Of a DNA stretch of 64,000 nt, positions 3,709-30,909 are shown in pieces. The stretch covers positions 34,077 to 98,076 of the forward strand of contig JAJYDJ010000004.1 in NCBI GenBank assembly GCA_021777565.1, read 5' to 3'. Numbering within the stretch: position 1 is the stretch's first letter; every line of letters starts with the position of its first letter. The notes beneath the pieces are model-generated. The model had not been told where the DNA came from. It ran no database searches and saw only the letters and a program-made list of their open reading frames with translations. The position numbers were made by a program, and so were the translations under genes. The stretch comes from a bacterium (GTDB lineage Bacteria; Patescibacteriota; Microgenomatia; Levybacterales; UBA12049).

Positions 3709-3768
3709 AGCTAATACTTAGGGATTCTAACAAATTAGTGTGGGTTTGTCAACTGTTAAGAGGATTGC

Positions 3769-5286
3769 TTAGACAAAGCCAGGGAAGAAGTCTTTTTTAA
3801 TGTGGCTACTTGGGACATGCAGCATGTGCAAGAGCTCTTCATAGTAGGTGACCATACCATGAGGCCCTGAAAGGTAATACCACCTATCCAGATAGTCTGG
3901 GACATATTTCTTGATCATTTCACCACTGATACGCCCCTTTTCTCCCTTCCATGAGGTAGGAATGCTTGCTTCATCAGTCAGTGTGTATACCGTGCGTAGT
4001 CCATAGGCCTTTTGTGCCTCATCAAAAACATCAGTATAGGCAATCTCTTCTTCTGTTTTATTGGCATAGAAAAGCACAATATCACGTTTCTGATTGGCAT
4101 CAGTAAGATACTTGATCATAGCTCGATATGGGGTAATGCCAATACCACCTGCCAAAAAGACAAGTTTTTTCTTTGGATCATCTGGAAGCACAAAATCTCC
4201 ACCCAATGATCCAACGAGTACTGGTGTGGTGGCGGTGATGGACTTCAGGGCTTTTTTGAAACTACTTCCATCAGGATAAAATCTTACTCCTAGATGCATC
4301 TGCGATTCGGTAGGAGAAGATGCTATGGTAAAGTAGCGTCTGTTCCCTCGACTATCAGTATGATCATGGGGGATAGTCCACTCTAAATATTGCCCTGGGG
4401 TAAACGATATTTTTTGAGGCAATGAGAATATGTAATCTACCGTGTCTTCTCCATAGGCAATGCTTTTTTGCATGAATAACTTCAATCGAATTTTAGGACT
4501 GACCACAAATGCAAAGATGTTACCAATGCACAAGGCAATTTCAGGGGTCATGACCAGTGGACCAAGCGCAATATTTGGTGAAAACAGAAGGCCAACGATT
4601 GCCCCGTAGATAGCTTGTAGTCTTTTCGTTGGTGGCGTAGTCAATGGTTCAGTAAGCATGACAAACCCCAGGAAAAGCAGAGAAGAATGTAAGGTGAGTG
4701 CGGTGAGTGTGGTGAGAATGGATGACTGGTGCATGAGAGAGAAAAAGAAGGTGACTGCCAGTGCACTCAATAAAAACGTAAATACCAGATCTTCACGCTG
4801 AATTTTTCTTACCAGCAGTAGTCCTCCTACCAACACAAATGGCATGAGATAGGTTGTCCCAACCCACCAACTTGCTGATTGTCCAAAAAAGAGTGACGTG
4901 ACAACGACCGCAATGGCAGCAGGGTTAAAGATATGTTTATTCTTATACGTGAGTAGGAATTTACTGGCGATGGCAAGTCCAGTAGCTGCGACCAGGAATG
5001 GATAGCCAACATAGTGTTCACTTGGTGTGATGATAAGTGTCAAAATGAGTGTAGTGATAAGAAACGATTCTGTGTTGGTTGGAACAGCAAGAAAGTAACC
5101 AATTGCCCGGTTTGTAATATATCCGGTGGCAACAATAAGTGCGGTTGAGACAATAAGTGCCATGGGGGAGAATCCAACAAGCTGAAAAAATGAGAGAAAT
5201 AGGGCCACACAGAGAAGCATGATCAAATAATAGACGGTGAGTCGATACATGGTGATCTGATTGAGAAGATTATCTATAAATTTCAT
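3769..5286 (-). CDS. membrane oxidoreductase: polytopic N-terminal domain (RnfD/NqrB-like, HIFNPAA motif) fused to an FAD/NAD(P)-binding ferredoxin-reductase-type domain
   Basis: 505 aa. About 8 predicted TM helices in the first 260 aa. The C-terminal part has RRYFTIASSP (an RxY[ST] FAD motif) and LAGGIGITPYRAM (a GGxGxxP NAD(P) motif). Confidence 0.55.
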   Translation of the reverse strand: MKFIDNLLNQITMYRLTVYYLIMLLCVALFLSFFQLVGFSPMALIVSTALIVATGYITNRAIGYFLAVPTNTESFLITTLILTLIITPSEHYVGYPFLVAATGLAIASKFLLTYKNKHIFNPAAIAVVVTSLFFGQSASWWVGTTYLMPFVLVGGLLLVRKIQREDLVFTFLLSALAVTFFFSLMHQSSILTTLTALTLHSSLLFLGFVMLTEPLTTPPTKRLQAIYGAIVGLLFSPNIALGPLVMTPEIALCIGNIFAFVVSPKIRLKLFMQKSIAYGEDTVDYIFSLPQKISFTPGQYLEWTIPHDHTDSRGNRRYFTIASSPTESQMHLGVRFYPDGSSFKKALKSITATTPVLVGSLGGDFVLPDDPKKKLVFLAGGIGITPYRAMIKYLTDANQKRDIVLFYANKTEEEIAYTDVFDEAQKAYGLRTVYTLTDEASIPTSWKGEKGRISGEMIKKYVPDYLDRWYYLSGPHGMVTYYEELLHMLHVPSSHIKKDFFPGFV

Positions 5287-6038
5287 ACTGTTTCCTCCAA
5301 AACATATTTCTTAAATCCATCGGAATAGGTTGCTACCCCATCACTATCTATCATATACCCTTCAAGCCCTTCTTTGTCCTGAATAAATTCTATTCCTTTT
5401 CTCCCCATAGCAAACGCTGGTGTGGCAAACCGGTCCGCCTCAAAAACATTTTGCGCCAAGACCGTAAGACTGACGATTTCTGTAATCGTGTCGTCTGGGT
5501 GATAGGGGTTATAGATATGTTGCCCCCTGATATAGGTGCCTGATGTGGCAATTCCCATATCGGTCAGAAGAAGTACCTTAATAATCTCATCTTGTTTAAA
5601 CGGATTTTTGATGCCAATATGCCAGTCCTCATTTTTCTCATTATGTCCAGAAAGAGCTATATCTCCTCCTGCATCGACGCTGTGATTTGGTAGTCCCATC
5701 TCTTTTAGTTTGTCACTGGCGCGTTGTATCGCCCATCCTTTGACTACCCCTGATGGGTCAAAGACGTTATTGTGCCAAGGGTTAAAAAATCCAAATGTTT
5801 CTTCCTGTGTTTTTCTGCACCAGTGAATAACTTCTTGCATCTCAGGTGAGTAGGATGACGGGACGATATCGTGACGATTTATCTTACTTACTTCACTCGT
5901 CTCTTTATACGGACTAAATTGTTCATCTATGTGCTGAAAGTAATCAAAGATTGTTGTTAAATCGTCCGTTGTTGCATGGACATCAGAAAGAGTGATCGTG
6001 ATGGGCATCCCCATGATAAGTTGTGTATCTTGCACCAT
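5283..6038 (-). CDS. apbE: FAD:protein FMN transferase (ApbE family)
   Basis: ApbE-like sequence (MGMPITITLSD..., GFFNPWHNNVFDPSGVVKGWA, AGGDIALSGH). The ORF-track start at 6149 overlaps the upstream gene, so I moved the start to the internal Met at 6038. Confidence 0.7.
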   Translation of the reverse strand: MVQDTQLIMGMPITITLSDVHATTDDLTTIFDYFQHIDEQFSPYKETSEVSKINRHDIVPSSYSPEMQEVIHWCRKTQEETFGFFNPWHNNVFDPSGVVKGWAIQRASDKLKEMGLPNHSVDAGGDIALSGHNEKNEDWHIGIKNPFKQDEIIKVLLLTDMGIATSGTYIRGQHIYNPYHPDDTITEIVSLTVLAQNVFEADRFATPAFAMGRKGIEFIQDKEGLEGYMIDSDGVATYSDGFKKYVLEETV

Positions 6039-6045
6039 GTAGAAA

Positions 6046-6510
6046 TTATGATTTTGCCTGTTGGAGTGCTTGCTGGAGTGACTGCTGGAATGCACCTGTT
6101 GTATTCGTTGCACCAGAAATGCTGTCAACAGCGGCACTCTGTTTGGCAATGACTTCCTGAGTAAGTACCGGCATAACCTGACTACTTACTTCATCAGTAT
6201 GTCCACCACCAGTTGGATATTGGAGCCATTTCACATCCGTGATCTTGCCACCACTGATGACAACCTGTACTTGGACATTGCCATAAAAGGCATCGGTTAC
6301 CGGACCTGTGTAGGTGCCATCTTTATATCCTGATGCTGATCCAGTAGTTGGCGTAACGGTGGATGATGGCTGTCCTTGACCACCAGATGTACTCGTTGGG
6401 ATAGCGGTTGGAAGGACAAGTGGTCCATTCTCTTCCTGTTGATGTTTTTGGAAGATGGCATACACTCCGATGAGTCCAATGACGCCGATTGCTAACAGAA
6501 ATTTTTTCAT
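6046..6510 (-). CDS. secreted or membrane-anchored FMN-binding domain protein (flavinylation target)
   Basis: 154 aa. N-terminal hydrophobic anchor. FMN_bind-like region with DSISGAT, which matches the Dxx(s/t)gA(T/S) flavinylation motif used by ApbE. Confidence 0.65.
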   Translation of the reverse strand: MKKFLLAIGVIGLIGVYAIFQKHQQEENGPLVLPTAIPTSTSGGQGQPSSTVTPTTGSASGYKDGTYTGPVTDAFYGNVQVQVVISGGKITDVKWLQYPTGGGHTDEVSSQVMPVLTQEVIAKQSAAVDSISGATNTTGAFQQSLQQALQQAKS

Positions 6511-6634
6511 ATTGTGATATAGATAACTATATTGGTCTAGGCTTAACTTCTACTGAAAAAAAGTAGGTTATTTCTAGTAAAAATATGTGTACGTACTGAG
6601 TATGTCATGAGTAATCTGTCAGATCAAGTGTCTC

Positions 6635-9157
6635 TTACAGACTGTATTTTTTCAGGAAGAGTTTTTTCATAATTTCCACCAAGACTAGGTAGGTACCGAC
6701 CAACAAAATTAAGATCATGAAGTAGAATGGTGGTGGCGTGACAAATCCAAGACTTTCTTTCAGTGGTGAGAATGGAATCATGAGTGACAATCCAACGATG
6801 CCAAGACACGTCCCTGCAAGCCATTTCCCAGGGCGGCTTAAGAAGAATGGCGTACGAGACGTACGAATGACAAAAACAACTAAAATTTCAGTCGCCATGG
6901 ATTCAATAAACCATCCTGTTTGGAAAAGGGCAGGATGTGCCTTAAAGATAAATAACATGACACCAAAGGTTAGGAAGTCATAGAGTGAACTGATAGGGCC
7001 AAAGAAAATCATATAGTTCCTGATAAATCCAATATTCCAATGTCTAGGCCTCTGCATGGACTCAGGGTCGACATTGTCCGTTGGGATGGTGAGTTGTGAC
7101 AGATCGTAGAGTCCGTTGGTGAGTAAAATTTGTACTGGCGTCATTGGTAAAAATGGTAAGAAAAAGGAGGCGCCAGCAGCGGAGAACATATTGCCAAAGT
7201 TTGAGCTTGTCCCCATGAGAATATATTTAATAGTGTTACTGAAGGTGCGTCGTCCCTCCATAATGCCTTCAGCGATGACATCAAGACTTTTGTGCAGAAG
7301 AACCACGGTGGCAGCGTCTTTGGCGACATCTACTGCGGTATTGACAGAAATTCCTACATCTGCAGCCCTGAGGGAAGGAATATCATTAATACCATCTCCC
7401 AGATATCCGACATCATGTCCTTCTTTTTGTAGTGTCTGGACGATCTTAAGCTTCATCTCTGGAGTAACACGGGCAAAGACGTTGTGTGCTAAGACTATTT
7501 TTTTAAACTCTTCATCACTGAGTTTTTCAAGCTCTGTACTGACTGATAATCCGGTAATTTTCATACCGACTTCGCTACACACTTTCTGAGTAACTATCTC
7601 GTTATCTCCGGTGATAATTTTGACATCAACACCAAGGGTATGGAGTTTGGCAATAGCCTCTTTTGCAGTAAGCTTTGGCACGTCCAAAAAGGTCAGGTAC
7701 CCTAAGAAATCCAATCCCTTTGCATCATCCCAATCATAGGTTTTTTTCTTGGCTACTTTTTTACAGGCAAGGACGATCACGCGAAGTCCATCAGCATTGA
7801 GTGCATGAAACTTTTTCTGCAGTGCCGCCTTATTGATACGATGATCGCAGAGTGGAAGGATAGAATCAGGAGCACCTTTGACGATCAGATCCGGTTTGTC
7901 TGTGTTAAGCACACAAAACATCATGCGTTTATCAAAATCAAATGGTTCATCATGTAACTTCTCAACGGGGTGTTCCAGATGAATGTTATGTTTCATGCTA
8001 TAGCGCCAGATTGCAGCATCCACGACATCACCAATAATATGTCGGTGCACGATCGCATCATTGCACTGCATGGCCGCACGCAAAACAATATCATTTGTTT
8101 TGCCCTTGATATCAAAATAATCAACCACATCAAGATGTCCCTCGGTGAGTGTTCCGGTCTTGTCGGTACAAAGAATATCCATATTGCCAAGATTTTCAAT
8201 AGCGATAAGTTGTTTGGCAACGACTTTTTTCTTGGCAAGTTTACCCGCGCCATGAGAGAGACTGACCGTTACAATAACAGGAAGAAGTTCTGGGGTAAGT
8301 CCTACCGCGATAGCAAGTGAGAAAAGAAGTGAGTCAAGAAGTGGGTGACCAAGGATTGCATTTACAACAAATATAACTATGGTAAGAATAAAAATAACTT
8401 TTACCAAAAGCTGGCCAAACCCTGTTAATCCTTTTTCAAAATCGGTTTGTGGTTTTACATACAGTGTGCTTTTGGCAATCTTACCAAATTCAGTGTCTTT
8501 GCCAATACGTACAACTACTCCCTTACCAAATCCATTTTCTACAATAGTTCCCATGAAGGCCATGGTCTGCGTTGGGGCTTTCTCGGAATACTCCAATGCT
8601 TTCATGACAGCCTCAGACTCACCAGTGAGTGCTGATTCATTGATAAGAAGGTGAGCGCTATCAACGAGTCTCAGATCTGCAGGGATGATAGTTCCTTGTT
8701 GCACGAGGACGATATCACCAATAGTAAGTTCGCTGACGGGGATTTCGACTCTCTCATCATTTCGAAGTACGAGTGCAGTAAGTGAAATTTTCTTAAGAAG
8801 TTTATCAATAGCCCTTTCTGCCCCAAACTCGTTCCAAAATCCTAATCCTACACTAAGTAAAATCATGGCAAAGATGTAGTAGGCACTGACGTGTTGACCC
8901 AAAAAGTAAGAAATGAGGGTTGCAAGAGACAGAATAAGAATAAGAGGGTTACCAGTAATTTGCCTCAGAAAGATCGTCACAAGTGTTGTGTGTCTTTTTT
9001 GAATAGTATTTGGCCCGTACTGAGTTTGTCTGACATGTACCTCTTCTGGAGTCAGTCCAGTGAGGCGTGAGCTGACCTTTGCGAGTACGTCTTCATACGT
9101 GTCTGATGCGAACACGTCTTGAGATAAGGCTTTGGATGCCATAGATGCTTTTAGCAT
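6635..9157 (-). CDS. cation-transporting P-type ATPase (MgtA / Ca2+-ATPase-like)
   Basis: 840 aa. Motifs DKTGTLT (phosphorylation site), TGES, TGDN and GDGINDIPSLRAADVGISV. About 10 TM segments. Confidence 0.9.
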   Translation of the reverse strand: MLKASMASKALSQDVFASDTYEDVLAKVSSRLTGLTPEEVHVRQTQYGPNTIQKRHTTLVTIFLRQITGNPLILILSLATLISYFLGQHVSAYYIFAMILLSVGLGFWNEFGAERAIDKLLKKISLTALVLRNDERVEIPVSELTIGDIVLVQQGTIIPADLRLVDSAHLLINESALTGESEAVMKALEYSEKAPTQTMAFMGTIVENGFGKGVVVRIGKDTEFGKIAKSTLYVKPQTDFEKGLTGFGQLLVKVIFILTIVIFVVNAILGHPLLDSLLFSLAIAVGLTPELLPVIVTVSLSHGAGKLAKKKVVAKQLIAIENLGNMDILCTDKTGTLTEGHLDVVDYFDIKGKTNDIVLRAAMQCNDAIVHRHIIGDVVDAAIWRYSMKHNIHLEHPVEKLHDEPFDFDKRMMFCVLNTDKPDLIVKGAPDSILPLCDHRINKAALQKKFHALNADGLRVIVLACKKVAKKKTYDWDDAKGLDFLGYLTFLDVPKLTAKEAIAKLHTLGVDVKIITGDNEIVTQKVCSEVGMKITGLSVSTELEKLSDEEFKKIVLAHNVFARVTPEMKLKIVQTLQKEGHDVGYLGDGINDIPSLRAADVGISVNTAVDVAKDAATVVLLHKSLDVIAEGIMEGRRTFSNTIKYILMGTSSNFGNMFSAAGASFFLPFLPMTPVQILLTNGLYDLSQLTIPTDNVDPESMQRPRHWNIGFIRNYMIFFGPISSLYDFLTFGVMLFIFKAHPALFQTGWFIESMATEILVVFVIRTSRTPFFLSRPGKWLAGTCLGIVGLSLMIPFSPLKESLGFVTPPPFYFMILILLVGTYLVLVEIMKKLFLKKYSL

Positions 9158-10855: not shown

Positions 10856-10926
10856 TGCCGGATCGTCTAATGGTAGGACAACGGACTCTGAATCCGTTTA
10901 TCTTGGTTCGAATCCAGGTCCGGCAG
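10856..10926 (+). tRNA. tRNA-Gln (anticodon CTG)
   Basis: Folded by hand. Acceptor TGCCGGA/TCCGGCA (7 bp), D-stem GTCT/GGAC with loop AATGGTA, anticodon stem ACGGA/TCCGT with loop CTCTGAA (U33, CTG, A37), variable TTAT, T-stem CTTGG/CCAGG with loop TTCGAAT, discriminator G. CCA is not encoded. Confidence 0.8.
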
Positions 10927-12642
10927 CAAGCTTGAAATAGCCTCATCAGAACCACACTTTTGGGTTACTAAATCAATGGAATCGCCAGGTTCGATTGTCT
11001 CCAGAACTTTAATATAGTTTTTCTTCATATTAGATAACACAATCCACGGTTCGTATTGATGTATCGATAAAATCTTATCAGTCAGTGTTAGGTTCGATCC
11101 GAGGGCGTGGAGTATAGCTCGCTTCTGTTCAGTTGTTCCTTTTTTAAACCAAATGTGCGCGTAGGTAGCAAAATTAAATGTCTGCTCACATAGTTCTAAC
11201 CACTCATCAGCGCGTTTATCTGTCTGAGCAACATTGGTGCGCACTTGCTTCTGCTCTTCTAGAAGGTTTGTCTTTTTATGCGTATATTCTTCATCAGTAA
11301 TGAAGCCTTTCAGTCGCATACTCAAGAGCTCATCAAGTTGCTTTTGTACGTCAGTATCTACAGATTGCAAGTTTTTCTTAATCGTAGTTCTTTCATGTAC
11401 TTCGTTCTTATGCAACTCCTGTAACCACTTAATTGCCCACTTACTAAATCCCTCAGGAATAGCAAACTGATCAATCAAGGCATTTACTTGTTCTTCAAAT
11501 TGAGTGACCACAAGGGAAGTTTGTTTGCATTTCTCTCCATCAGCTAACATTTTCTTTGTACAATGAAGCCACGTGTAGTGAAGAATGGTAGGATTTCTCA
11601 TTTCAGCAATCTTTTTTCCACACTGAATGCACTCATCTCTGTCCTGTGCTTTATGGAATTTCGTTTTACATATAGGGCAGATAATCTGCCATTTCTCTTC
11701 CATGGTAATATCACCACCACATTTGCCACACGTCATTTCTCCTGTGTATGCCCATTGTTTAGGTGTCAACCGTCTGTTTGCTTTCTTCCCAAGAAGGACC
11801 TGGATGGTGTCAAATTCTTCCTTTTTCATGAGAGGTTGGAAGTTGGCTGCAAACTCGCCTTCAGCTCGTACGATATGACCATAGTACTTTGGATCAGATA
11901 GTAACTTGTACCATGTACTCTTTGCCAGTGGGTTTCCACCCATTCTTTTTGTTTTTCTTGTGCGATATCCCCACTCATTGTTTAAAATATTTAGTGCTTC
12001 TATTGGTGTATGTGTCTTATTCAGAATAAGGGTAACTGCGTTATGTAGGAGTTGAAAACGATCCTTATCAACTCCCTGTATGTATTCATCGCGGTCATTC
12101 TTTATGTGGACATACCCTTGCGAGAGAGAACCACTCGGAATATACCCTGCTTTGAGTTTTGTTCTATTGCCACGCTTAACAACCTCACTTTTGTCATCAC
12201 TGTCTCTGGTTGCTCTAGTAAATTCATTCATCAAATATTCCTTATCTCGTGGAGAATTTTCAAAAACACCATGGGGAGTAACGACAATCTTTAGCTTTCC
12301 ATCAGACATGAGTTGCGTAAATCTGCCACCATCGGCGTAATTTCTCGCAATACGATTTGGGTGCCAAACCATAACGGCATCGACCTGTCCTTGTTCAATA
12401 AGGTCAATAAGTGCTTGAAATTGTGATCGTCCCATTTTGAAAGCTGATTGTTTTTCTTCAAAAACATGAATCATTGCAAGGGGAAGTTGAAATTTATTCA
12501 CAATATCACTTATTAAATCTTCTTTTTGTCCTTCAATGGAGCGAAGTTGTTTATCTTCATTGTCCTCGGTGGATTTACGAAGATACATACCAAATCTGTA
12601 TGTCTTTAGTTTTTGTTGGAGTGTGTAATCAAAAAATGCCAT
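10867..12642 (-). CDS. large serine recombinase (integrase) of the integrated element
   Basis: 591 aa. N-terminal resolvase-type catalytic domain with YLRKSTEDNE (catalytic Ser), a long recombinase domain and a Cys-rich zinc ribbon (CGKCGG...CPICK...CIQCGK). The last ~20 codons overlap the tRNA-Gln gene in antisense. Confidence 0.85.
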   Translation of the reverse strand: MAFFDYTLQQKLKTYRFGMYLRKSTEDNEDKQLRSIEGQKEDLISDIVNKFQLPLAMIHVFEEKQSAFKMGRSQFQALIDLIEQGQVDAVMVWHPNRIARNYADGGRFTQLMSDGKLKIVVTPHGVFENSPRDKEYLMNEFTRATRDSDDKSEVVKRGNRTKLKAGYIPSGSLSQGYVHIKNDRDEYIQGVDKDRFQLLHNAVTLILNKTHTPIEALNILNNEWGYRTRKTKRMGGNPLAKSTWYKLLSDPKYYGHIVRAEGEFAANFQPLMKKEEFDTIQVLLGKKANRRLTPKQWAYTGEMTCGKCGGDITMEEKWQIICPICKTKFHKAQDRDECIQCGKKIAEMRNPTILHYTWLHCTKKMLADGEKCKQTSLVVTQFEEQVNALIDQFAIPEGFSKWAIKWLQELHKNEVHERTTIKKNLQSVDTDVQKQLDELLSMRLKGFITDEEYTHKKTNLLEEQKQVRTNVAQTDKRADEWLELCEQTFNFATYAHIWFKKGTTEQKRAILHALGSNLTLTDKILSIHQYEPWIVLSNMKKNYIKVLETIEPGDSIDLVTQKCGSDEAISSLLPDLDSNQDKRIQSPLSYH

Positions 12643-12659: not shown

Positions 12660-14096
12660 TTACGGATAATAGCCGCTTTCTCTGGCTGTTTTCTCCACTA
12701 TCGTATCATACATCTCATTGCATTTCTCTTCGTCGGGAACCATGTCTTGATGAAACAGAAATGACGAAAATTCCTCAAGTTCTCCCGTGGAAAACAACTC
12801 TTTGAATAACTCGTGAAGCGCATGCATAGCCGTATTGTGATGTATCAACACCTCTTTGGCTTCCTTCTGTGCATGAGCTATGGTCTTCTCTCCTAAAATT
12901 TCCATGTCATCAAAAAAGTCATGTTCAATGCGGGAGATGACGTGCGAATACGTTTGTATGAGTTGGTACACCACCATCATGTTGGCTAAGAGGTGTTGTA
13001 TTGTTGTTAGTGTTTCCTTATTTTTGAATGTGTAGGTTGTTGCTCTGTCATTTATCTTATGCGGCTTCAAGAGTGTCATACTTTCCAGAAGATCTGAGAT
13101 ATGGGAAAGTTCTATATCATATAATGATTCTTCTCCAGAATCTCGTATATAAAAGCTATCAACCGAGGCAGCATAGCGACGAAATTCTCCATGCGAATCA
13201 TATTCACCAATCTCATATGTTCCAATATCATCAACGTACCGTTGCAGCCACGTATCTGAAAACAGATGCATGTTGTTATAGATACTTTTGATCAGAATAC
13301 CTTCTTTGTCATCTTCTTGTCCTTTTTGTAAAACTCCCTGGGCTGTAAGGCTTTGTATGCGATCACATTGCTCTTTGTATACTTGCTCGTAGGCTCTCTG
13401 TACTTCTGGTGTTACCATTTGTGAAAAATGGACTGTCTTCTCAATATATTCACTTATTTCATCATCAGTAATCTCTTCAGACTTATTTTTCGTTTCTTTC
13501 GCAAGGGTAAATCGTATCCAGTCCGCATGTTGCGTAACATACTCCTCAAGAAGCTCATCCTGTGTTTTATGCATGTTTTCCAGTGCATCCTCAAGAGATT
13601 CTGTATATGGATAGTCTTGTTTGTTTATTACGCCTTGTTTTAGGAGGGTATAGTATGTCTCAGATATGGCAATCCTCTCAATTTCAATAGTTTCATTGAG
13701 CCTTCTTTGTTTTTCTTCATCTAGCTTTTGCTGATACATATCAGGAGAGATAAATATGGGGAATATTCTTTGCGTTTTGTGAATGTTTCTCGCCAGATGA
13801 TCTACAAGCATCATATAGTGGAGTTTATCCAGCAGTGCACTTTGTCGCTCGAGCTCAATCATACTAGTGCCTAAATCCACTTGGACAAATGATACTCGCT
13901 TATACAGCGTAGTATAGAAATTATATGCTCGTGCTTGTGCTATTGATAATGCATTGATAAGTGTTTTTCGCTCATTCTCATAGCTTTTACTAGCTTCATC
14001 CTCTTTGAGGATATATCCAATAACAAGCTGTGCCGTTTCTTTGGCTGTTAATGCTTGTCCGAGTTGGTTTAGCTTTTTTAAGTCAAAATGAGTCAT
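12660..14096 (-). CDS. hypothetical protein (island; helical, E/K-rich)
   Basis: 478-aa ORF immediately downstream of the recombinase on the same strand. I recognise no motif. Confidence 0.45.
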   Translation of the reverse strand: MTHFDLKKLNQLGQALTAKETAQLVIGYILKEDEASKSYENERKTLINALSIAQARAYNFYTTLYKRVSFVQVDLGTSMIELERQSALLDKLHYMMLVDHLARNIHKTQRIFPIFISPDMYQQKLDEEKQRRLNETIEIERIAISETYYTLLKQGVINKQDYPYTESLEDALENMHKTQDELLEEYVTQHADWIRFTLAKETKNKSEEITDDEISEYIEKTVHFSQMVTPEVQRAYEQVYKEQCDRIQSLTAQGVLQKGQEDDKEGILIKSIYNNMHLFSDTWLQRYVDDIGTYEIGEYDSHGEFRRYAASVDSFYIRDSGEESLYDIELSHISDLLESMTLLKPHKINDRATTYTFKNKETLTTIQHLLANMMVVYQLIQTYSHVISRIEHDFFDDMEILGEKTIAHAQKEAKEVLIHHNTAMHALHELFKELFSTGELEEFSSFLFHQDMVPDEEKCNEMYDTIVEKTARESGYYP

Positions 14097-14099
14097 AGA

Positions 14100-14480
14100 T
14101 TATCTTTTGGTTTTCCTTTCAAGAATAAGTCGATCAACCACTTCCATCTTTTCCTCCAGTTCTGCCACTTCAAATGCCTTAAGTGCAATGCCAAGCAAAT
14201 AACCTAGTGTCGTAGCAATTTTGGGTGGCAGTATGCCACTTCTCACTTCATTCATAACTTGAACAGTTGCCGTGGTTACATCACTAGCTTTGTGTATGGT
14301 AAGAGGTGACAAATCAAGATTGAGTTTTTGATACCCCTCAGATGCGCCACCTTTCTGTACAGCAATTTCTTTTACTTCCTTCATTGCTGGCTCATGGTTG
14401 ATACAGAAAAAGGAGTTATCTACAGCATAACTACCACACTGTTTGCCATTTGTTTTCATATAGTGACACTGTTTATTCAT
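14100..14480 (-). CDS. hypothetical protein with N-terminal Cys/His cluster (zinc-finger-like)
   Basis: 126 aa. N-terminus has CHYMKTNGKQCGSY...FFCINH. Overlaps the flanking genes by 4 bp, which suggests an operon. Confidence 0.4.
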   Translation of the reverse strand: MNKQCHYMKTNGKQCGSYAVDNSFFCINHEPAMKEVKEIAVQKGGASEGYQKLNLDLSPLTIHKASDVTTATVQVMNEVRSGILPPKIATTLGYLLGIALKAFEVAELEEKMEVVDRLILERKTKR

Positions 14481-15922
14481 ATAGTCTTAGGTGAGCTACT
14501 TACGGGGAGGGGGATATCCTCCTCATTATCAAATAGCTTCTGTATAGACGGTTCTGACACTTCTGACGGATTTTCTTCACACATAACTTCGCAAGTATCC
14601 TTTTCGTCCGTAGACTCATTATCTGCTTCAGGATATGTTTTTTCACTGTCAGAACTGTCAGATGTGCCAAGAAGACCATAACTCATGGCAAGTTTTGTCA
14701 GAAGCTCTTCATCATAGAGAATTCCCCGTTGCCCTTGTGTCCCTCGCTTTTTAAGAAATCCAAGCCCTTTAAGTATTCTTCCGATGGTTTCGTGAGTAAG
14801 CGTAAACCGTGTGTCACGTGTGGCATTGATCTTGTTTGCCACCAGATCTGTTGGCAAGAATGCATCACATACATCGTATTTGAGTGCAATCAGTGCTTCT
14901 AAGACATGTGCTTCTATACTATCAATGGCATCTTCTTTTTTCTGGGTATCAATAAGGGCAATGAGGCGCAAAAATGTTTCTTTTTTCTCGGGGAAGAAGG
15001 TGAGTACCAATTGATAAAGTGGAGACATAATATCACCAAATCTGCCTTGTGCTGGCTTTTCTGCAGCCACAAGAGGAGTAGCAATATGGGCAATACGAAA
15101 CGCTGTGAGCCTATCTTTGAGTGGTTGTGCATATTCTGGGAGCACTTTGTTGCTAAATGACTTGTTTGATGGCTTCATGTCTACAGCAATGCTTCGTGAT
15201 TCCAAAATGTCATCTACTGGTCTATTGGTTGCAATAATGGTTGGCCCAAACAGGTGATAGACCTTGGTATCCTTAAAGGCTCCTTTTTCAGGCCAAAGTG
15301 TGCGAGAAGACACTGATCCTTTTTCAAACCGAGCAAGAAACAAATCATCACAATTTGCTCGCTCTACTTTTTTAGGGAAGTCTTTAATATCAAAACCAAG
15401 AGATGCTTTATGGTCATTACCCCAACGGATAATATCTGCTTCACGAATACATTCTGTGTATACACCGCGTCTGGCAACATAAAGAGCCCCCTTCATGGTT
15501 CTGCTTTTCCCTCGCTCTTTTACTGCATAAAAATACAAGATAGGTGAAAAATGCAATTTGTCCAGTATATACGTATGAAAGTCCCATAGGACAAGCAGAT
15601 GATAATACAATTCGTGAGGGAGATCAGAAATATGTTTGTGATAGGCAAGCAAGTCCTCGTAGAGCCTTATGTCTTCTGTACATTCCTGTTCTGCATGATG
15701 ACTCAATGCTTGAGATAACCCTTCTTTGTCTGCAAAGGTATAAGGACATGCCTCAAGAGGTGGTGGGGCACAAATCATATCATCCAGTTCAATCTGATCA
15801 GTCAGTTTATTGTCTGTCATCAGGTAACGAAGCTTCCCCTGATCATTGATCACATCAATAACTCCTGGGATATCCAGTGCGTATATGATTTTCTTTGGTT
15901 TTTCTGTGTTAGCTTTTTCCAT
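14477..15922 (-). CDS. hypothetical protein (island; possible replication/primase-associated, acidic C-terminal tail)
   Basis: 481 aa. Only a degenerate P-loop-like KERGKSRT. I cannot assign a family. Confidence 0.35.
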   Translation of the reverse strand: MEKANTEKPKKIIYALDIPGVIDVINDQGKLRYLMTDNKLTDQIELDDMICAPPPLEACPYTFADKEGLSQALSHHAEQECTEDIRLYEDLLAYHKHISDLPHELYYHLLVLWDFHTYILDKLHFSPILYFYAVKERGKSRTMKGALYVARRGVYTECIREADIIRWGNDHKASLGFDIKDFPKKVERANCDDLFLARFEKGSVSSRTLWPEKGAFKDTKVYHLFGPTIIATNRPVDDILESRSIAVDMKPSNKSFSNKVLPEYAQPLKDRLTAFRIAHIATPLVAAEKPAQGRFGDIMSPLYQLVLTFFPEKKETFLRLIALIDTQKKEDAIDSIEAHVLEALIALKYDVCDAFLPTDLVANKINATRDTRFTLTHETIGRILKGLGFLKKRGTQGQRGILYDEELLTKLAMSYGLLGTSDSSDSEKTYPEADNESTDEKDTCEVMCEENPSEVSEPSIQKLFDNEEDIPLPVSSSPKTI

Positions 15923-16686: not shown

Positions 16687-18015
16687 TTATTTCTGAGGTA
16701 AAGCAACTAATTTATATCCAATGTTTGGTATATTAAAGAACATTATGTTAATTTCATCATTAGTCATCTTCGCATTTCTGAGAATTGGTTTTAAGTCATC
16801 CATAATATATTGAGTTGCTCTGTTAGAATCTTCTGACTGGAACGAATTAGATGGAATTTTTGCTTTTACGTCATCATATGTAGTAACGGCTTCTTTATTT
16901 ATTAAGAGTAATCTAAGTAATTTTATTCCTCTGGTACTCGGCCGAATATTTATCTGTGGGTTATCTCTAAATTTGAGTGTCGCTTTTGTTATATTGAGTT
17001 CGAGGCATCCAAAGGAATATATCTCTTCAGAAGGTATAGGCGATTGAGATACATCGCTAGATTTTTTGTTTTGGCTTTCTTGTACTTGGAGGGGTTTCTT
17101 CTCCACAGTATTAGGATTTATATTCCTAGTGTGTGATTTCATTGCCTTTTGAGTATTAAAGCCATCTACATAAACAAAGGCTCTAGGTGGAAGAGTGATG
17201 GTAACCTCGCAATGTCGGGGGGGATAGTATTCTTGAAGGTCACCACCAAAAATTATACTTTTTTGACTTTTGGATGTAACAGTTGGTTTAGAAGCGAAAT
17301 CAATTTTTACATTGTTTATAGTGAAATATCTTTCTCTTTCTAAAAGACGCAAAACATGCATAAACTTATATTTTATATCTGGTCTGTTCTTATCTGGCCG
17401 TAGTAACGAAATTCCTGCAGGATCATCTGTTGGGTTTTGCTTCTCATAAGAGCCTAGTATGGCTTCTGAAATTGTTAAGATACCACTACCATCATCAAAG
17501 TCAGCTTTTTTATCTTCATCCAAAATCTCTTTTATACATTGAAGCACTGTCTTTTTTTGTAACTCCTCGCTATATACATTACCTACTCCCTCAATCTCAT
17601 CATGAAGTGATTCAGCAAATGAGAGTAGTTGCTTATAGCTTACATCCGCTTTATATACCCCCGATTTAATCACTTTAAAGTTTTTGATAACTTTTTCTTT
17701 CTGTAGTGTATCGATGGCATCAAGAGTATCAAATCCTACTCGCCACTGGTCATTGTCTGCAAGTTCTGATGGAGAGAGAAGATCTATACTAAAAAAATCT
17801 GATTTTGGCTCCTTTAACTTCTTTCCAACCTCTGTGAGGTCGGTGACTATTTGCATCAATTCTTCAGAAATACGCTCAGCCTTTTCAAGACCAGTATTTC
17901 TGCCCAGGGGATTGAGTGACAAATCTACAGGAACAGCAAGTTGACCTTCTTGGTCAGAAAGAATCTCTTCTGTAGATTTTTTACCTAAGAATTTATTCAA
18001 TATTTTAATACTCAT
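16687..18015 (-). CDS. hypothetical DNA-binding protein with C-terminal OmpR/PhoB-type winged-helix domain
   Basis: 442 aa. The C-terminal ~80 aa (IKLLRLLLINKEAVTTYDDVKAKIP...IPNIGYKLV) fit the Trans_reg_C pattern: ...LLxxL...V...L....W......V...rLR.kL...GYrL. Confidence 0.4.
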   Translation of the reverse strand: MSIKILNKFLGKKSTEEILSDQEGQLAVPVDLSLNPLGRNTGLEKAERISEELMQIVTDLTEVGKKLKEPKSDFFSIDLLSPSELADNDQWRVGFDTLDAIDTLQKEKVIKNFKVIKSGVYKADVSYKQLLSFAESLHDEIEGVGNVYSEELQKKTVLQCIKEILDEDKKADFDDGSGILTISEAILGSYEKQNPTDDPAGISLLRPDKNRPDIKYKFMHVLRLLERERYFTINNVKIDFASKPTVTSKSQKSIIFGGDLQEYYPPRHCEVTITLPPRAFVYVDGFNTQKAMKSHTRNINPNTVEKKPLQVQESQNKKSSDVSQSPIPSEEIYSFGCLELNITKATLKFRDNPQINIRPSTRGIKLLRLLLINKEAVTTYDDVKAKIPSNSFQSEDSNRATQYIMDDLKPILRNAKMTNDEINIMFFNIPNIGYKLVALPQK

Positions 18016-21451: not shown

Positions 21452-22846
21452 ATGCTTGAGAGAGTATATATTAGTGATTTAAAGAATTATATTGGTCAAG
21501 ATGTTATTGTTGATGGTTGGGTTGATGTAAGGCGTGACCATGGTAAACTCATCTTCATAGATCTACGTGATAAATCAGAAAAAGTACAAATAGTATTTCT
21601 ACCTACTCACCAGGAAGCGCATGAAACTGCAAAGTCTATCCGTTCAGAATGGGTACTGAGAATAAAAGGAAAAGTGAATGCAAGATCGGAGAAACTTGTA
21701 AATAACAATGAATTTAATGGCACATTAGAAATTGAAGCATTGAGTGTTGAAGTATTGAATAAATCAGAAGCGCTTCCCATAGATATAAGCACAGATGGTC
21801 TTGAAATCAACGAAGAGAATCGACTTCGGTATAGATACCTTGACCTAAGAAGAAAACGTATGCAAAGAAATCTTCGCATACGCCATAAGATCATAAAGAA
21901 AATGAGAGATTATCTTGATGAACGTGATTTTATTGAAGTAGAGACTCCAATTTTGACAAAATCGACTCCCGAAGGTGCAAGGGACTATATTGTCCCTTCG
22001 AGACAATCTAAAGGAAAATTCTACGCACTACCACAATCACCACAACAATATAAACAACTATTGATGGTTGCTGGGATTGAAAAGTATTTTCAGATTGCGC
22101 GATGTTTTAGAGATGAAGATACCAGGTCAGATAGACAGCCAGAGTTCACACAAATGGATCTTGAAATGAGTTTCGTAACACAAGAAGAATTAATCAACTT
22201 GAATGAAGAGATGTTGATTCATATTGTGCAAACGCTTATACCAGAAAAAAAGATCCAACAAATTCCATTTCCTCGCATTACATATAAAGAGGCTATGGAG
22301 AAATATCATACGGATAGACCAGATATTAGAGAAAATAAAGATGATCCGAACCTTCTTGCGTTTTGCTGGGTTGTTGATTTTCCATTCTTCGAAAAAGCCG
22401 ATAATGGCAGTTGGACATTTACGCATAATCCTTTTTCTGCCCCTAAACCAGAATATATGAATGATTTGCTTATGAAAACAAATGTAGAGAATATTATAAC
22501 AACTCAGTATGATATTGTTTTGAATGGGTACGAAATCGGTGGTGGAAGTATTAGGAATCACAACCCAGAGGCATTAAAAGCTGTGTTTGAAATAATGGGA
22601 TACCCAGAAGATCAAATCTCAAAGAATTTTGGCCACATGTTGCAAGCGTTGTCATACGGTGCTCCACCACATGGAGGAATTGCTTGGGGATTAGATCGTT
22701 TCGTTACCCTCCTCTTAGGAGAAGACTCTATTAGAGAGGTTATTCCTTTTGCTAAAACAGGTGAAGGAAAAGATCTTATGATGAGTTCTCCCTCGGAAGT
22801 CTCTACTGCCCAGCTACAGGAGTTGAATATAAAAACTTTAAAATAA
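21452..22846 (+). CDS. aspS: aspartyl-tRNA synthetase, archaeal/eukaryal type (no GAD insertion), island copy
   Basis: 464 aa. N-terminal OB anticodon-binding domain (VIVDGWVDVRRDHGKLIFIDLRD), motif 1 FIEVETPILTKSTPEGARDYIVP, QSPQQYKQLLMVAG, motif 2 FRDEDTRSDRQPEFTQMD, motif 3 GAPPHGGIAWGLDRF. Confidence 0.85.
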   Translation: MLERVYISDLKNYIGQDVIVDGWVDVRRDHGKLIFIDLRDKSEKVQIVFLPTHQEAHETAKSIRSEWVLRIKGKVNARSEKLVNNNEFNGTLEIEALSVEVLNKSEALPIDISTDGLEINEENRLRYRYLDLRRKRMQRNLRIRHKIIKKMRDYLDERDFIEVETPILTKSTPEGARDYIVPSRQSKGKFYALPQSPQQYKQLLMVAGIEKYFQIARCFRDEDTRSDRQPEFTQMDLEMSFVTQEELINLNEEMLIHIVQTLIPEKKIQQIPFPRITYKEAMEKYHTDRPDIRENKDDPNLLAFCWVVDFPFFEKADNGSWTFTHNPFSAPKPEYMNDLLMKTNVENIITTQYDIVLNGYEIGGGSIRNHNPEALKAVFEIMGYPEDQISKNFGHMLQALSYGAPPHGGIAWGLDRFVTLLLGEDSIREVIPFAKTGEGKDLMMSSPSEVSTAQLQELNIKTLK

Positions 22847-23596: not shown

Positions 23597-25597
23597 ATGT
23601 TGATTAAAGTTACATGCGCATCAATAAACCTTCAAAAGCTTAATGAAGATGCAATGGAGATGCTCTCAAATGCATCTTTAGCGAATGATGCAAGTACCAT
23701 AGCGAAAATAAAGGATGAACTTGGCTTTCCTGTCGAGCAACTTGCAGTTATTGAGAAGTGCAATGCTGTAATGATTGTTATTGCATATTATGGTGAATAT
23801 TTGGAGAACTACATTCATAGTAGACTATTGGACACATGGGATAAATTATCTCATGGCGGTGTTATAAACTCAGTGAGGCATATAAAGTTTTTTGACAATA
23901 GGGATGCAATCCACTACTTAGGAGAATGTGTGCTTGGATTGCACAGTGTAACTCTAGGAGATTCTCAGGTACTTGCTCAGGTAACCAGCGCTTTACAAGT
24001 GGCAGCACAAATTCAACCCAGTAATCCTACATTTTCATTTATGGCAAACTGGTTTAAAGATTTATCGAGTGAAGTAAAGTTACGTACATCACTTTTTGAT
24101 GGAAATATTTCGCTCGAAAGGATAGCAACTGATTTTATCGCTGAGCATATACAAAAGGACGGAAAAGTCACTATTGTTGGGTACGGTAGGTCAGGCAAGC
24201 TTGTCTCAAAAATTCTATCGGAGGAATTACACTACAATATACAAATTGCTAATCGGACACCGAACATACTTAAACACCTATCACCTAAGAGCGGCGTTAT
24301 TCCCGTTAGTTTCCAAGATTACAATAAAATTCTTGATGTAGATTGTGTAGTTATTGCGCTTTCTTCAAATGGAGAAACACAAAAATACTGTTCAGAGATG
24401 CTTTTAATTTGCGATGAATTAAAAAAGAAACCAAAACTATTTATTGATCTCGCAACTCCTCCATTAATGAGTAAAAATACTGTTCCTTATCTTATCAATA
24501 TCGAAGACTTATCTACAGTTGCACATAAAAATCTTGATAAACGCATTTCTGAAGTTGCGAAGGCAAGAGATATTGTTAATAAGTCAAGTAACACGTTTAT
24601 CGAAACGCTTAATAAAGAGATAAGTGCATTATTGCTTGATGAACAGAGAGAAAAAGTAAATTGCAAAATAGATCCTGTCAAGCTTGAATTGTTTAAATTT
24701 AGAAATGATGTGTATAAGTTCATCAGAGATTATCTTGATAAACTAGATTTTGTTGAGGTGAATACACCTTGTATTGTAGGTGTATCGACGGACCCACCAA
24801 AGGTTGATAAAGGAGGAACTCTTGATGTCTCTTGGCCTGGTGGGAATAATGCATTCCTCCGTCAATCAAACCAGCTCTATAAGCAGATGATTGTTGCTTC
24901 GGGTTTACCAAAAATTTATGAAATTGGACCATTCTGGCGCGCAGAGACAACTCCGTCTTATCGTCATTTACAAGAATCAATCGGCCTTGATGTAGAATAC
25001 AGCAATCCTAAAAATTTGGAAGAAGTTTATAGGCTTGCTTATGAAATAATTCTTGAAGTAAAAAATCACATTTTCAAACATCATGATATTAAGCGAAAAA
25101 ATCTACTCCTTCCTCGCTTTGATTCATTACCTATCTTCACGTATGAGGAGGCTGTAAAACTGTTGAATTCAAAGGGATACGCATTGGCGTTTGGAGAGGA
25201 TATTGGATTAATGGGTGAGGCGAAATTAGGACAGATTGTTCGACGAGAATACAATAGTGATGCACTTATTATCAAAGATTACCCTGACACAATCAAGAAG
25301 TTTTATACCAAGAAAAGCAAAGGTGGGCTAACTGAAACTTTTGATGTTATTATCTGTGGATGGGAATTTGTGAGTGGGGCAGTAAGAGAAACTAATAGAG
25401 ATCTTATTGAAAAATCAATGAAGTTATCGGGGATCAATATTCGCAACTACAATTTCTATCTTTCTATCGTAGATGGTGCAGTCCCGCACGGAGGATTCTG
25501 TCTTGGATTGGATCGACTTGTGGCAAAACTCCTTGACCATGAGATGATTACTGATGCCGTAGTCTTCCCACGATCATTTAAGACACTTATTCCGTAA
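23597..25597 (+). CDS. fusion protein: N-terminal glutamyl-tRNA reductase (HemA)-like catalytic + NADPH-binding domains, C-terminal AspRS-lineage class II catalytic core
   Basis: 666 aa. N-terminal blocks line up with GluTR: EKCNAVMIV (cf. TCNRxE, the catalytic Cys), HYLGECVLGLHSVTLGDSQVLAQV (cf. HLxRVASGLDSxVLGExQILGQV), VTIVGYGRSGKLV...IQIANRT (cf. VLVIGAGEMG...IANRT), LFIDLATPP (cf. LVDIAVPRD). The C-terminal ~300 aa has aaRS motif 1 FVEVNTPCIV, QSNQLYKQMIVASGL, FWRAETT and motif 3 GAVPHGGFCLGLDRL. No OB anticodon-binding domain. Confidence 0.7.
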   Translation: MLIKVTCASINLQKLNEDAMEMLSNASLANDASTIAKIKDELGFPVEQLAVIEKCNAVMIVIAYYGEYLENYIHSRLLDTWDKLSHGGVINSVRHIKFFDNRDAIHYLGECVLGLHSVTLGDSQVLAQVTSALQVAAQIQPSNPTFSFMANWFKDLSSEVKLRTSLFDGNISLERIATDFIAEHIQKDGKVTIVGYGRSGKLVSKILSEELHYNIQIANRTPNILKHLSPKSGVIPVSFQDYNKILDVDCVVIALSSNGETQKYCSEMLLICDELKKKPKLFIDLATPPLMSKNTVPYLINIEDLSTVAHKNLDKRISEVAKARDIVNKSSNTFIETLNKEISALLLDEQREKVNCKIDPVKLELFKFRNDVYKFIRDYLDKLDFVEVNTPCIVGVSTDPPKVDKGGTLDVSWPGGNNAFLRQSNQLYKQMIVASGLPKIYEIGPFWRAETTPSYRHLQESIGLDVEYSNPKNLEEVYRLAYEIILEVKNHIFKHHDIKRKNLLLPRFDSLPIFTYEEAVKLLNSKGYALAFGEDIGLMGEAKLGQIVRREYNSDALIIKDYPDTIKKFYTKKSKGGLTETFDVIICGWEFVSGAVRETNRDLIEKSMKLSGINIRNYNFYLSIVDGAVPHGGFCLGLDRLVAKLLDHEMITDAVVFPRSFKTLIP

Positions 25598-29688: not shown

Positions 29689-30909
29689 GTGACGAGAGTA
29701 CAACTTACCAATAAGACATACATATCAACAGCGACAGATGACGTTAAATTATTCTACCCAAGATCTCAAATGCAATCAGGTGAGCTCATATCAGGTTTTC
29801 AAGTAAATCGAAAACTAATTGATGGTCTCACAAAAGCTGAAGTTGTGTTTTTTTCAATGTTTTGGAAGCCAATCGGCGATTCTTTTCTATTTTTGTCTGT
29901 CTTAACCGCTTGTCTGGAATATTTGCAACTTACTCGACTAAATAATATGCCCAAAATTATCATTGATGACACGTTTTCTAACCTCATAAGACATCTGAAC
30001 ATACTCACAGAATATGAATTTATTTCACATGCAGTTGATTGGTTTAAGCAAAGCGTGCGCGAGAATAAAAATGTTGTTTTAATAACTGACGATGATCCAT
30101 TTACAATGGGAGAAAGTCCTGCAGTATTTAACACAGAAGAATATGTTTATCCGAAGTTTCACGAGAAACTAGTTGATGGCGATATTATCGATTATCCCTC
30201 ACGGCCAGCGAGATATTTTCTAACCTTTGAGAGAGAGGTAGGTATTAGATTAAAATCTGATCCTAATCTATCGCTTCCTGACTTTATCATGAATGATGAT
30301 ATTACTCTCACACAAAAATGTATAAATGATTTTGGGATTGATCTTGATACTCCTGGCCTTACATTCCTGGGAGTTATTAACCAAACCAGCATGGTGGAAA
30401 AAAAATTTGGAGGTCTAAGGTATCTTGAGGTAATAGATAAGCTATATGAGCTTAATAAAAATATTGCTGTTCTTTTCCTAGCTAACACAAAAGAAGAGTC
30501 GCCAAGTGAATGGCTAGCAGTTCTTGAAAAGATTAAAAAAAGTCCATATAAGGTCTATTTGATCGACTCTCGGGATTTTGAATTGCTTGCCTACATGTTC
30601 GCTCGATGCAAGTTGGTGTTGGGGAATGATACAGGCTTTTCTCATTTAGCCGCAATGTGTAAAAGATCCTTGTTAGCACCAAATGTGCCTTGCGTGATCA
30701 CTTACTCCAGACATGATTATGGGAAATGGAGTACAGGAAAAGAAAATGTCTATCCTGTCGTCACAGAGTTAAGTCAATACCTCAAGGATAGTAACTCCTC
30801 AATTAGTCGAGACAAAATTGATGTTACCAACTGGGGTTTAAAAGAGTGGGCATATTCTATATCTGAAGACGCTGTTTTTAACAGAATCAAAAAAATATGG
30901 GAAAAGTAG
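29689..30909 (+). CDS. GT9-family glycosyltransferase (heptosyltransferase-like)
   Basis: 406 aa. C-terminal LVLGNDTGFSHLAAMC resembles the GNDSGPMHLAAA signature of ADP-heptose:LPS heptosyltransferases. Confidence 0.6.
   Translation: MTRVQLTNKTYISTATDDVKLFYPRSQMQSGELISGFQVNRKLIDGLTKAEVVFFSMFWKPIGDSFLFLSVLTACLEYLQLTRLNNMPKIIIDDTFSNLIRHLNILTEYEFISHAVDWFKQSVRENKNVVLITDDDPFTMGESPAVFNTEEYVYPKFHEKLVDGDIIDYPSRPARYFLTFEREVGIRLKSDPNLSLPDFIMNDDITLTQKCINDFGIDLDTPGLTFLGVINQTSMVEKKFGGLRYLEVIDKLYELNKNIAVLFLANTKEESPSEWLAVLEKIKKSPYKVYLIDSRDFELLAYMFARCKLVLGNDTGFSHLAAMCKRSLLAPNVPCVITYSRHDYGKWSTGKENVYPVVTELSQYLKDSNSSISRDKIDVTNWGLKEWAYSISEDAVFNRIKKIWEK

Follow-up and report, generated by a model that had tools for sequence, protein, structure and literature searches.

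Three adjacent genes in a 64,000-nucleotide stretch of a Levybacterales genome (Patescibacteriota; assembly GCA_021777565.1, contig JAJYDJ010000004.1, positions 34,077 to 98,076; hereafter the window) encode an FMN_bind acceptor protein, an ApbE-type transferase that attaches flavin mononucleotide (FMN) from flavin adenine dinucleotide (FAD) to proteins, and a membrane-bound reductase. They are an ordinary new copy of the already described NQR/RNF-like system, carried by a Patescibacteria-type genome, and probably form a self-contained transmembrane electron-export module of this type. Architecture, gene order, folds, motifs and the conservation of those motifs directly support this assignment. 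An earlier reading made from the letters alone (the sequence-only reading) had placed a three-gene flavin module at positions 3,769 to 6,510, and an open reading frame (ORF) check bears this out: the FMN_bind, ApbE and reductase genes are three co-directional, tightly spaced ORFs on the minus strand, with HIFNPAA in the reductase and DSISGAT in the acceptor. The module is composed as follows.

6046..6510, minus strand: gene 1, FMN_bind acceptor, 154 aa (PF04205, E=1.1e-10)
6106..6126, minus strand: putative flavinylation motif D129-S-I-S-G-A-T135 within gene 1 (read from the sequence)
5283..6038, minus strand: gene 2, ApbE-type FAD:protein FMN transferase, 251 aa (PF02424, E=5.9e-38)
3769..5286, minus strand: gene 3, reductase, 505 aa (PF03116 + PF00175 fusion)
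4492..5286, minus strand: N-terminal part of gene 3, residues 1-265, predicted polytopic membrane domain of RnfD/NqrB fold (PF03116, Foldseek)
3769..4491, minus strand: C-terminal part of gene 3, residues 266-505 plus stop codon, predicted cytoplasmic FNR-type FAD/NAD(P)H module (PF00175, Foldseek)

The ORF list had started ApbE at a TTG at 6149, overlapping the upstream gene; public gene calls use the ATG at 6038, which gives 251 aa, and the start is corrected to this position. With that start, 8 nt separate the FMN_bind stop from the ApbE ATG, and the ApbE stop and the reductase ATG share an ATGA overlap.

Gene order and relation to the NQR/RNF-like system

Méheust et al. (2021) use the name NQR/RNF-like for a PF03116-PF00175 fusion inside a flavinylation gene cluster, found in 127 genomes, mainly of Actinobacteria and the candidate phyla radiation (PMC8238504). 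The present genes have this arrangement: one protein carries PF03116 at its N-terminus and PF00175 at its C-terminus, its gene lies within five genes of ApbE and FMN_bind (all three being adjacent and co-directional), and its NqrB/RnfD-like part is without the flavinylated threonine. With its NqrC/RnfG-like, membrane-anchored acceptor, the module shares the architecture of the published system and shows no essential difference from it. Huang et al. (2024) present an AlphaFold-multimer model of the Ktedonobacter racemifer complex, in which the NqrB/RnfD-like subunit also has no flavinylated threonine, and suggest that the covalent flavin of the partner protein samples the vacant flavin site (PMC10979944). 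What is known of the system comes from genomics and AlphaFold models alone. The idea that electrons are carried through the membrane to a flavoprotein outside the cytoplasm, which the sequence-only reading had proposed for these genes, is a hypothesis that both papers had put forward for this architecture (PMC8238504, PMC10979944).

A protein search with the reductase returned more than 7,500 matches, the best 120 of which are full-length, 50–57% identical and mostly from Patescibacteria or metagenomes. Scanning one genome per species gave at least 432 relatives, and the locus comparisons reported here concern the best 80 of these. They belong to Patescibacteria, Chloroflexota including Ktedonobacteria, Alphaproteobacteria, Spirochaetota and Actinobacteria, with the closest reductase relatives coming from Patescibacteria. 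The order FMN_bind, ApbE, reductase on one strand recurs in about 60 of the 80 loci, in five phyla; because it does so in loci from several phyla, the juxtaposition of the trio is not due to chance. Two Ktedonobacteria relatives, from Dictyobacter (L007) and Ktedonospora (L015), are 49–52% identical and keep the same gene order. When the membrane domain alone was used as query, 593 clusters at 50% identity were retrieved (E≤1e-30), and the best 150 are mostly ~480–515 aa long, the size of the full fusion.

Other neighbours in the 80 loci are sporadic: two-component regulators (~5–10 per side), Nramp transporters (3) and VKOR (2). In loci L006, L008 and L058 the reductase is accompanied by one or two FMN_bind genes and no adjacent ApbE; in the other variant loci, L029, L034, L051, L057, L066, L072 and L080, the reductase stands alone although upstream sequence is present.

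Two halves of the reductase and their predicted flavin sites

The C-terminal half of the reductase matches NAD_binding_1 (PF00175) at E=4.7e-18 over residues 377-482, and FAD_binding_6 (PF00970) with 20.4 bits against a cut-off of 21.1. In the full-length AlphaFold model (pLDDT 90.2, pTM 0.85), Foldseek pairs this half with FNR-type proteins, NqrF FAD domains, cytochrome b5 reductase and the reductase modules of flavohaemoglobins at E ~1e-14, and a profile search of PDB sequences returns cytochrome b5 reductase and the NqrF FAD domain at ~1e-13. The FNR motifs RRYFTIASSP, GGIGITP and YLSGP are 85–100% conserved among homologues. By sequence and model, then, this half is an FNR-type FAD/NAD(P)H module. 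Of the five families that the sequence-only reading had named for a hidden Markov model check, NQR2_RnfD_RnfE, NAD_binding_1, FMN_bind and ApbE were recovered outright; FAD_binding_6 appeared 0.7 bits below its cut-off, and the FNR fold comes from the model.

The N-terminal half matches NQR2_RnfD_RnfE (PF03116) with 34.1 bits, above the gathering score of 27.7, over residues 132-235. Sequence-level searches of the PDB with the membrane domain gave either nothing or, from a 25-sequence profile, RnfD (8ahx_D, E=1.1e-3) as the sole match, so we turned to structure comparison. Because the top 50 Foldseek matches of the full-length model were exclusively of the FNR family, the N-terminal 268 residues were modelled alone (pLDDT 84.6). 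The 15 best PDB matches of this model are all RnfD chains (9eri_D, 8ahx_D, 7zc6_D) or Vibrio cholerae NqrB chains, with query-normalised TM-scores of 0.57–0.72; urea transporters come after them. The kinship with RnfD/NqrB, whose absence would have refuted the sequence-only reading, is thus upheld by both the family score and the fold.

RnfD and NqrB carry a covalent flavin that the module reductase appears to have given up. Its HIFNPAA motif occupies residues 118-124, and 27 residues separate FNPA from the aligned segment of the C-terminal half of the domain; the distance is 28–29 residues in 76 of 81 homologues and ~97 in RnfD (8ahx_D). In RnfD this stretch holds the flavinylated threonine. 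An [ST]G[AS][ST] motif is missing from the membrane domain of 80 of the 81 homologues, and by alignment the flavinylated RnfD/NqrB loop is deleted in the module reductase. Two candidates for a cryptic flavinylation site in the reductase were rejected: SASWW varies at the would-be acceptor position, and FTIASSP contains FTIASS, the classical FAD-binding motif of FNR proteins.

A non-covalent site seems to have been retained. When the FNR module is placed in the cytoplasm, every loop lysine and arginine of the membrane domain falls on the predicted inner side, and a short GQSASWWVGT loop with the 100% invariant pair W140-W141 is predicted to face outward. Conservation across the domain peaks in two motifs, H118-I-F-N121-P-A123 and T212-E213-P214, with H118, N121 and E213 conserved at 97–100% and A123 at 95%. 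The riboflavin of V. cholerae NqrB has N200, N203, A205 and D346 as its ligands (PMC10643135); we checked the numbering against the NqrB sequence, where these residues lie in N200-F-L-N203-P-A205 and in the motif M-A-T-D-P (D346). Motif correspondence would make H118, N121, A123 and E213 the counterparts of N200, N203, A205 and D346, suggesting that the membrane domain still has a site for a non-covalent flavin close to its cytoplasmic side. Neither these counterparts nor the invariant Trp-Trp pair was found in the consulted passages of Méheust 2021 and Huang 2024.

The module resembles the Na+-NQR and Rnf complexes in its NqrB/RnfD fold, its NqrF-like FAD/NADH module, an acceptor of the FMN_bind family to which NqrC and RnfG belong, and ApbE-dependent maturation. 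It has two subunits, however, whereas those complexes have six. NqrD/E or RnfA/E, NqrA, RnfB, RnfC and a 2Fe-2S domain on the FNR module are all missing, and since NqrD/E or RnfA/E are, so is the intramembrane Fe-S centre. In contrast to the complexes, the B/D-type subunit of the module has no covalent FMN site, and its electron flow is predicted to run one way, outward, rather than looping back to a cytoplasmic acceptor. A canonical Rnf or Na+-NQR complex was rejected on these grounds: the trio and its flanking genes include only D/B-type and G/C-type homologues of the six-subunit set, and the SGAT loop is deleted and its motif absent.

Could the retained fold also move ions? In a minimal redox-driven pump, electron flow from the inner flavin to an outer FMN through the NqrB-type domain would be coupled to the export of Na+ or H+. 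Within Na+-NQR the conduction of Na+ is assigned to NqrB, and its gating is linked to the redox steps of FMN and riboflavin (PMC10643135); the NqrB fold is kept here, and the acidic residues E73, E213 and E249, in or near the membrane, are 93–100% conserved. Yet E213 is already accounted for as a flavin ligand equivalent to D346, coupling in NQR also needs conformational changes of NqrD/E and NqrC, which have no counterpart in the module, and electrons would cross the domain in the direction opposite to that in NQR. We consider such a pump distinctly unlikely.

Very improbable, in our view, is a membrane NAD(P)H:quinone reductase, in which the inner flavin would pass its electrons to a quinone in the membrane, as NqrB does, leaving the FMN_bind protein an accessory role. 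Carriers of the module in Mesorhizobium and Actinobacteria do possess quinones. Most carriers, however, are Patescibacteria, which are generally without quinone biosynthesis. Although the riboflavin of NqrB hands electrons to ubiquinone at the NqrB rim (PMC10643135), a quinone route would also leave the conserved FMN_bind/ApbE pair unexplained.

The anchored acceptor and an ApbE without export signal

The FMN_bind protein begins with MKKFLLAIGVIGLIGVYAIF, MKK being followed by a 17-aa hydrophobic segment, the predicted anchor; a ~45-aa linker rich in Pro, Thr, Ser and Gly leads to the FMN_bind domain at residues ~66-152. Flanking charges suggest that the anchor is oriented with its N-terminus inside and its C-terminus outside. 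DSISGAT covers residues 129-135 (nt 6126..6106), which puts Thr135, the predicted site of the FMN phosphoester, 19 residues from the C-terminus. Across 70 partner proteins, that is, the FMN_bind proteins encoded beside related reductases, two clades differ in the target motif, which is D[ILV][IV]SGAT for the close one and [ST][KR]V[SA]GSS for the distant one. The closest solved structure is domain 2 of SaFMN3 (8p2a; E=1e-16 over residues 66-152), and the region of its flavinylated site is aligned. In E. coli, ApbE attached FMN covalently to that domain, whose midpoint potential is -184 mV and which, once reduced, reacts with O2 (PMC10339131). It has the same D-x-x-S-G-A-T site as the module acceptor. 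SaFMN3 and CbFMN4 (8p2a, 8p2b) are secreted, multiply flavinylated proteins, soluble chains of three to four domains, whereas the module acceptor is a single membrane-tethered domain with a dedicated reductase gene.

Partner proteins typically start with MKK and a hydrophobic segment, and those from Actinobacteria and Spirochaetota carry a lipobox or a signal-peptidase site; these export signals and anchors argue for an extracytoplasmic location. The 154-aa protein itself contains no Cys lipobox. The sequence-only reading had described it as a free, exported 154-aa FMN_bind protein with DSISGAT. Its size and motif stand, and homologues carry an anchor or export signal; the protein itself is predicted to be membrane-anchored.

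Partners vary in their N-terminal parts. In nine alphaproteobacterial loci (L033, L038, L040, L043, L044, L047, L052, L053 and L076) they measure ~230–295 aa, compared with ~145–190 aa in Patescibacteria, and have an extended stretch between anchor and domain. Twin-arginine-like N-termini occur in L068:4812-5225 (Spirochaetota, FRRTAAAM) and L083:4466-5122 (Arthrobacter, HHRRALTML), a hint that a few lineages may send the flavoprotein, once folded, through the twin-arginine (Tat) pathway.

ApbE presents a different picture at its N-terminus, MVQDTQLIMGMP, which leaves 8 residues before the domain core. The 251-aa protein has neither a signal peptide nor a lipobox, a feature that the sequence-only reading had passed over. 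A hydrophobic N-terminal extension is not encodable in 66 of 67 related loci: most have an in-frame stop a few codons (1–10) before M-[KR]-x-T-[KR], and the others have a non-hydrophobic extension. The enzyme aligns with V. cholerae ApbE (6nxi, E=1.5e-16), pairing GQHIYNP with YSHIIDP (catalytic His257), and the IATSG motif and the ADxxAT motif of the Mg site are conserved, so its catalytic residues appear intact. Since this ApbE has no export signal while the acceptor is exported, flavinylation is the weak link of the proposed system. Cytosolic ApbEs are known only with cytosolic substrates, for example in Klebsiella (PMC12052999). The K. pneumoniae enzyme resembles the module ApbE in having no signal peptide; its substrate is a cytosolic fumarate reductase, whereas the presumed substrate here carries an export signal or membrane anchor. 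In the consulted passages of Méheust 2021 and Huang 2024 no discussion of this mismatch was found, and the former accepted one signal peptide per cluster as a sufficient requirement (PMC8238504).

The simplest reading is that Thr135 would receive its FMN in the cytoplasm, either ahead of Sec export or while it is under way. ApbE can act on a 7-residue tag and performs best at protein termini, and the motif lies near the C-terminus; such early modification is favoured for these reasons. Two other ways around the mismatch were set aside as unlikely. A frameshift or read-through fusion of FMN_bind and ApbE, which would export the enzyme, is at odds with the different frames of the two genes and with an ApbE frame closed 1–10 codons upstream of its ATG in most loci. 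Hitch-hiking with a pre-folded flavoprotein through the Tat pathway is at odds with the N-termini, twin-arginine-like only in L068 and L083 and beginning with MKK elsewhere.

The same mismatch admits another explanation, namely that the module ApbE does not modify the exported partner. A second, exported ApbE encoded elsewhere would do so, or the partner would hold FMN non-covalently, and the cytoplasmic ApbE would, for example, hydrolyse FAD, supply the reductase with flavin or modify a cytoplasmic protein. The missing signal peptide in 66 of 67 loci, the cytosolic Klebsiella precedent and the three loci with reductase and FMN_bind genes and no ApbE beside them (L006, L008, L058) are what one would expect in that case. 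Set against them are the strict adjacency and order of FMN_bind and ApbE, a hallmark of a substrate and its enzyme, the conserved acceptor motif, and the membrane domain of the reductase, which offers no candidate ApbE motif. Two ApbEs are also unlikely in a ~0.95-Mb genome, and no second ApbE or FMN_bind gene lies within the 64-kb window. On balance we regard this explanation as unlikely and retain cytoplasmic modification of Thr135. The bolder combination, in which a two-subunit module would pump ions as a primary membrane energiser of Patescibacteria, bacteria without respiratory chains, with a Sec substrate flavinylated in the cytoplasm, is a long shot.

Analogy with extracellular electron transfer (EET) of the Listeria type, which the sequence-only reading had drawn through FmnB and PplA, goes as far as the concept. 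Both pair an ApbE-family enzyme with a surface FMN_bind flavoprotein that takes up cytoplasmic reducing power. The module acceptor, however, consists of one FMN domain with a transmembrane anchor, whereas PplA is a two-domain lipoprotein; its ApbE has no lipoprotein signal; and its transmembrane step would use an NqrB-type flavin domain where Listeria uses quinone. With the PplA model (NCBIfam NF041941) the acceptor reaches 18.4 bits where the cut-off is 325, and no Ndh2, EetA, EetB or DmkA/B was present among the flanking genes scanned. A Listeria-type EET locus was rejected on the PplA score and on the absence of Ndh2, EetA and EetB from these genes.

Proposed electron route, possible acceptors and genomic setting

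The route that we propose assigns cofactor occupancy, a direction of electron flow, an acceptor and a flavinylation site, all of which we infer. Electrons would pass from NAD(P)H to the FAD of the cytoplasmic FNR module, and from there to a non-covalent flavin in the membrane domain, at the cytoplasm-proximal site matching that of NqrB riboflavin (H118, N121, A123, E213). This inner flavin would reduce the covalent FMN on Thr135 of the anchored partner, which may dock from outside in the pocket emptied by the loop deletion, beside the invariant W140-W141. The flexibly tethered FMN domain could then reduce an extracellular acceptor, with Fe(III), O2 or another soluble oxidant as candidates. The net outcome would be re-oxidation of NAD(P)H at the cell surface of a Patescibacteria-type organism.

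Several points weigh against this reading. In the literature searched, no experimental or biochemical work on any NQR/RNF-like member was found. When the two genes to either side of the trio in the 80 loci were clustered all-against-all and counted by Pfam family, no acceptor or partner gene proved to be conserved. Exceptions to the gene order are mostly truncated contigs, but about ten loci have no ApbE and/or FMN_bind beside the reductase. The membrane domain yielded no match in a single-sequence search of PDB sequences, its sequence similarity to RnfD is weak (E=1.1e-3), and its putative flavin occupancy is drawn from residue correspondence only. Lastly, characterised ApbEs are exported lipoproteins, a cytosolic ApbE failed to complement in Salmonella (PMC12052999), and the module ApbE is predicted to be cytoplasmic though its presumed substrate is exported.

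The same export chain might serve a specific purpose, either as a surface ferric reductase for iron assimilation or as an O2 reductase resembling NADPH oxidase, for O2 scavenging or the production of reactive oxygen species. Méheust et al. report a VIT1 iron transporter in six NQR/RNF-like clusters (PMC8238504); Nramp transporters adjoin 3 of the 80 loci; and the homologous SaFMN3, at -184 mV, reacts with O2 once reduced. Metal-transport neighbours are nevertheless rare, the neighbour in the window is a type II/III P-type cation ATPase and not an iron system, and the sequence specifies no acceptor. A dedicated ferric or O2 reductase is therefore a tentative proposal, which we hold to be possible and less likely than the general export route.

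If the published hypothesis is true, Patescibacteria, which have few membrane redox devices at their disposal, would possess one in this module. By dumping NAD(P)H electrons outside, it would bear on redox balance and on iron, oxygen and host interactions in these reduced-genome, mostly uncultured bacteria. With two subunits, flavins as its only cofactors and cultivable carriers (Dictyobacter, Ktedonospora, Mesorhizobium, Agreia), it would make a good model for the movement of electrons, and perhaps ions, through NqrB/RnfD domains. Worth carrying forward are the ApbE without export signal and the conserved riboflavin-site counterparts. The former poses a testable question, whether a Sec substrate is flavinylated before export; if so, the unresolved problem of FAD supply outside the cell would be avoided.

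A consensus scan placed two promoter-like sites around the module.

6580..6608, minus strand: weak sigma-70-like site, 9/12 matches, in the 124-nt gap upstream of gene 1 (consensus scan only)
3724..3752, minus strand: TTGACA-17-TAGAAT, 11/12 matches with TG, between the reductase stop and the MarR start (consensus scan)

The first is a possible promoter of the three-gene unit, for which the evidence is weak because the total of sigma-70-like sites in the region does not exceed that of shuffled sequence. The second suggests a boundary outside the module, with the MarR/HlyD/HlyD/MFS efflux genes as a separate unit. By Pfam, the flanking genes encode a P-type ATPase, an M16 peptidase, MarR, two HlyD-type proteins and an MFS transporter. 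A functional link of the trio to the adjacent MarR/HlyD/MFS genes or to the P-type ATPase was rejected, given the strong promoter-like site before MarR and the presence of these families as neighbours in only 1–7 of the 80 loci. The efflux genes do lie beside the module, as the sequence-only reading had noted; they do not share its unit, being led by MarR with its own strong promoter-like site and not conserved as neighbours.

Directly upstream of the trio, on the same strand, 6635-9157 encodes an 840-aa P-type cation ATPase (Cation_ATPase_N + Cation_ATPase_C). In the NCBI metagenome-assembled copy of the locus (L002) this ATPase is split between two predicted genes (390 and 453 aa), so that copy may contain a frameshift or differ in its assembly.

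Farther along the window, a 591-aa serine recombinase ORF with a Resolvase domain (10867..12642, minus strand) runs with its 3' end into the tRNA-Gln(CTG) gene at 10856-10927 (plus strand), and the overlap looks like the integration junction of a mobile element. Beside the recombinase, the G+C fraction falls from ~0.43 to 0.33–0.39 over ~32 kb (~12000-44000), a region that is probably a genomic island. It contains ORFs of 440–480 aa without Pfam matches (12660-14096, 14477-15922, 16687-18015 and 35252-36622), glycosyltransferases of families GT9 (29689-30909) and GT4 (37163-38350), and a decarboxylase dependent on pyridoxal phosphate (33568-35274). Near a gene for a class II aminoacyl-tRNA synthetase (21452-22846), 23597-25597 encodes an unusual 666-aa fusion, made up of the N-terminal domain of glutamyl-tRNA reductase, an NAD(P) domain of shikimate-dehydrogenase type and the catalytic domain of a class II aminoacyl-tRNA synthetase.

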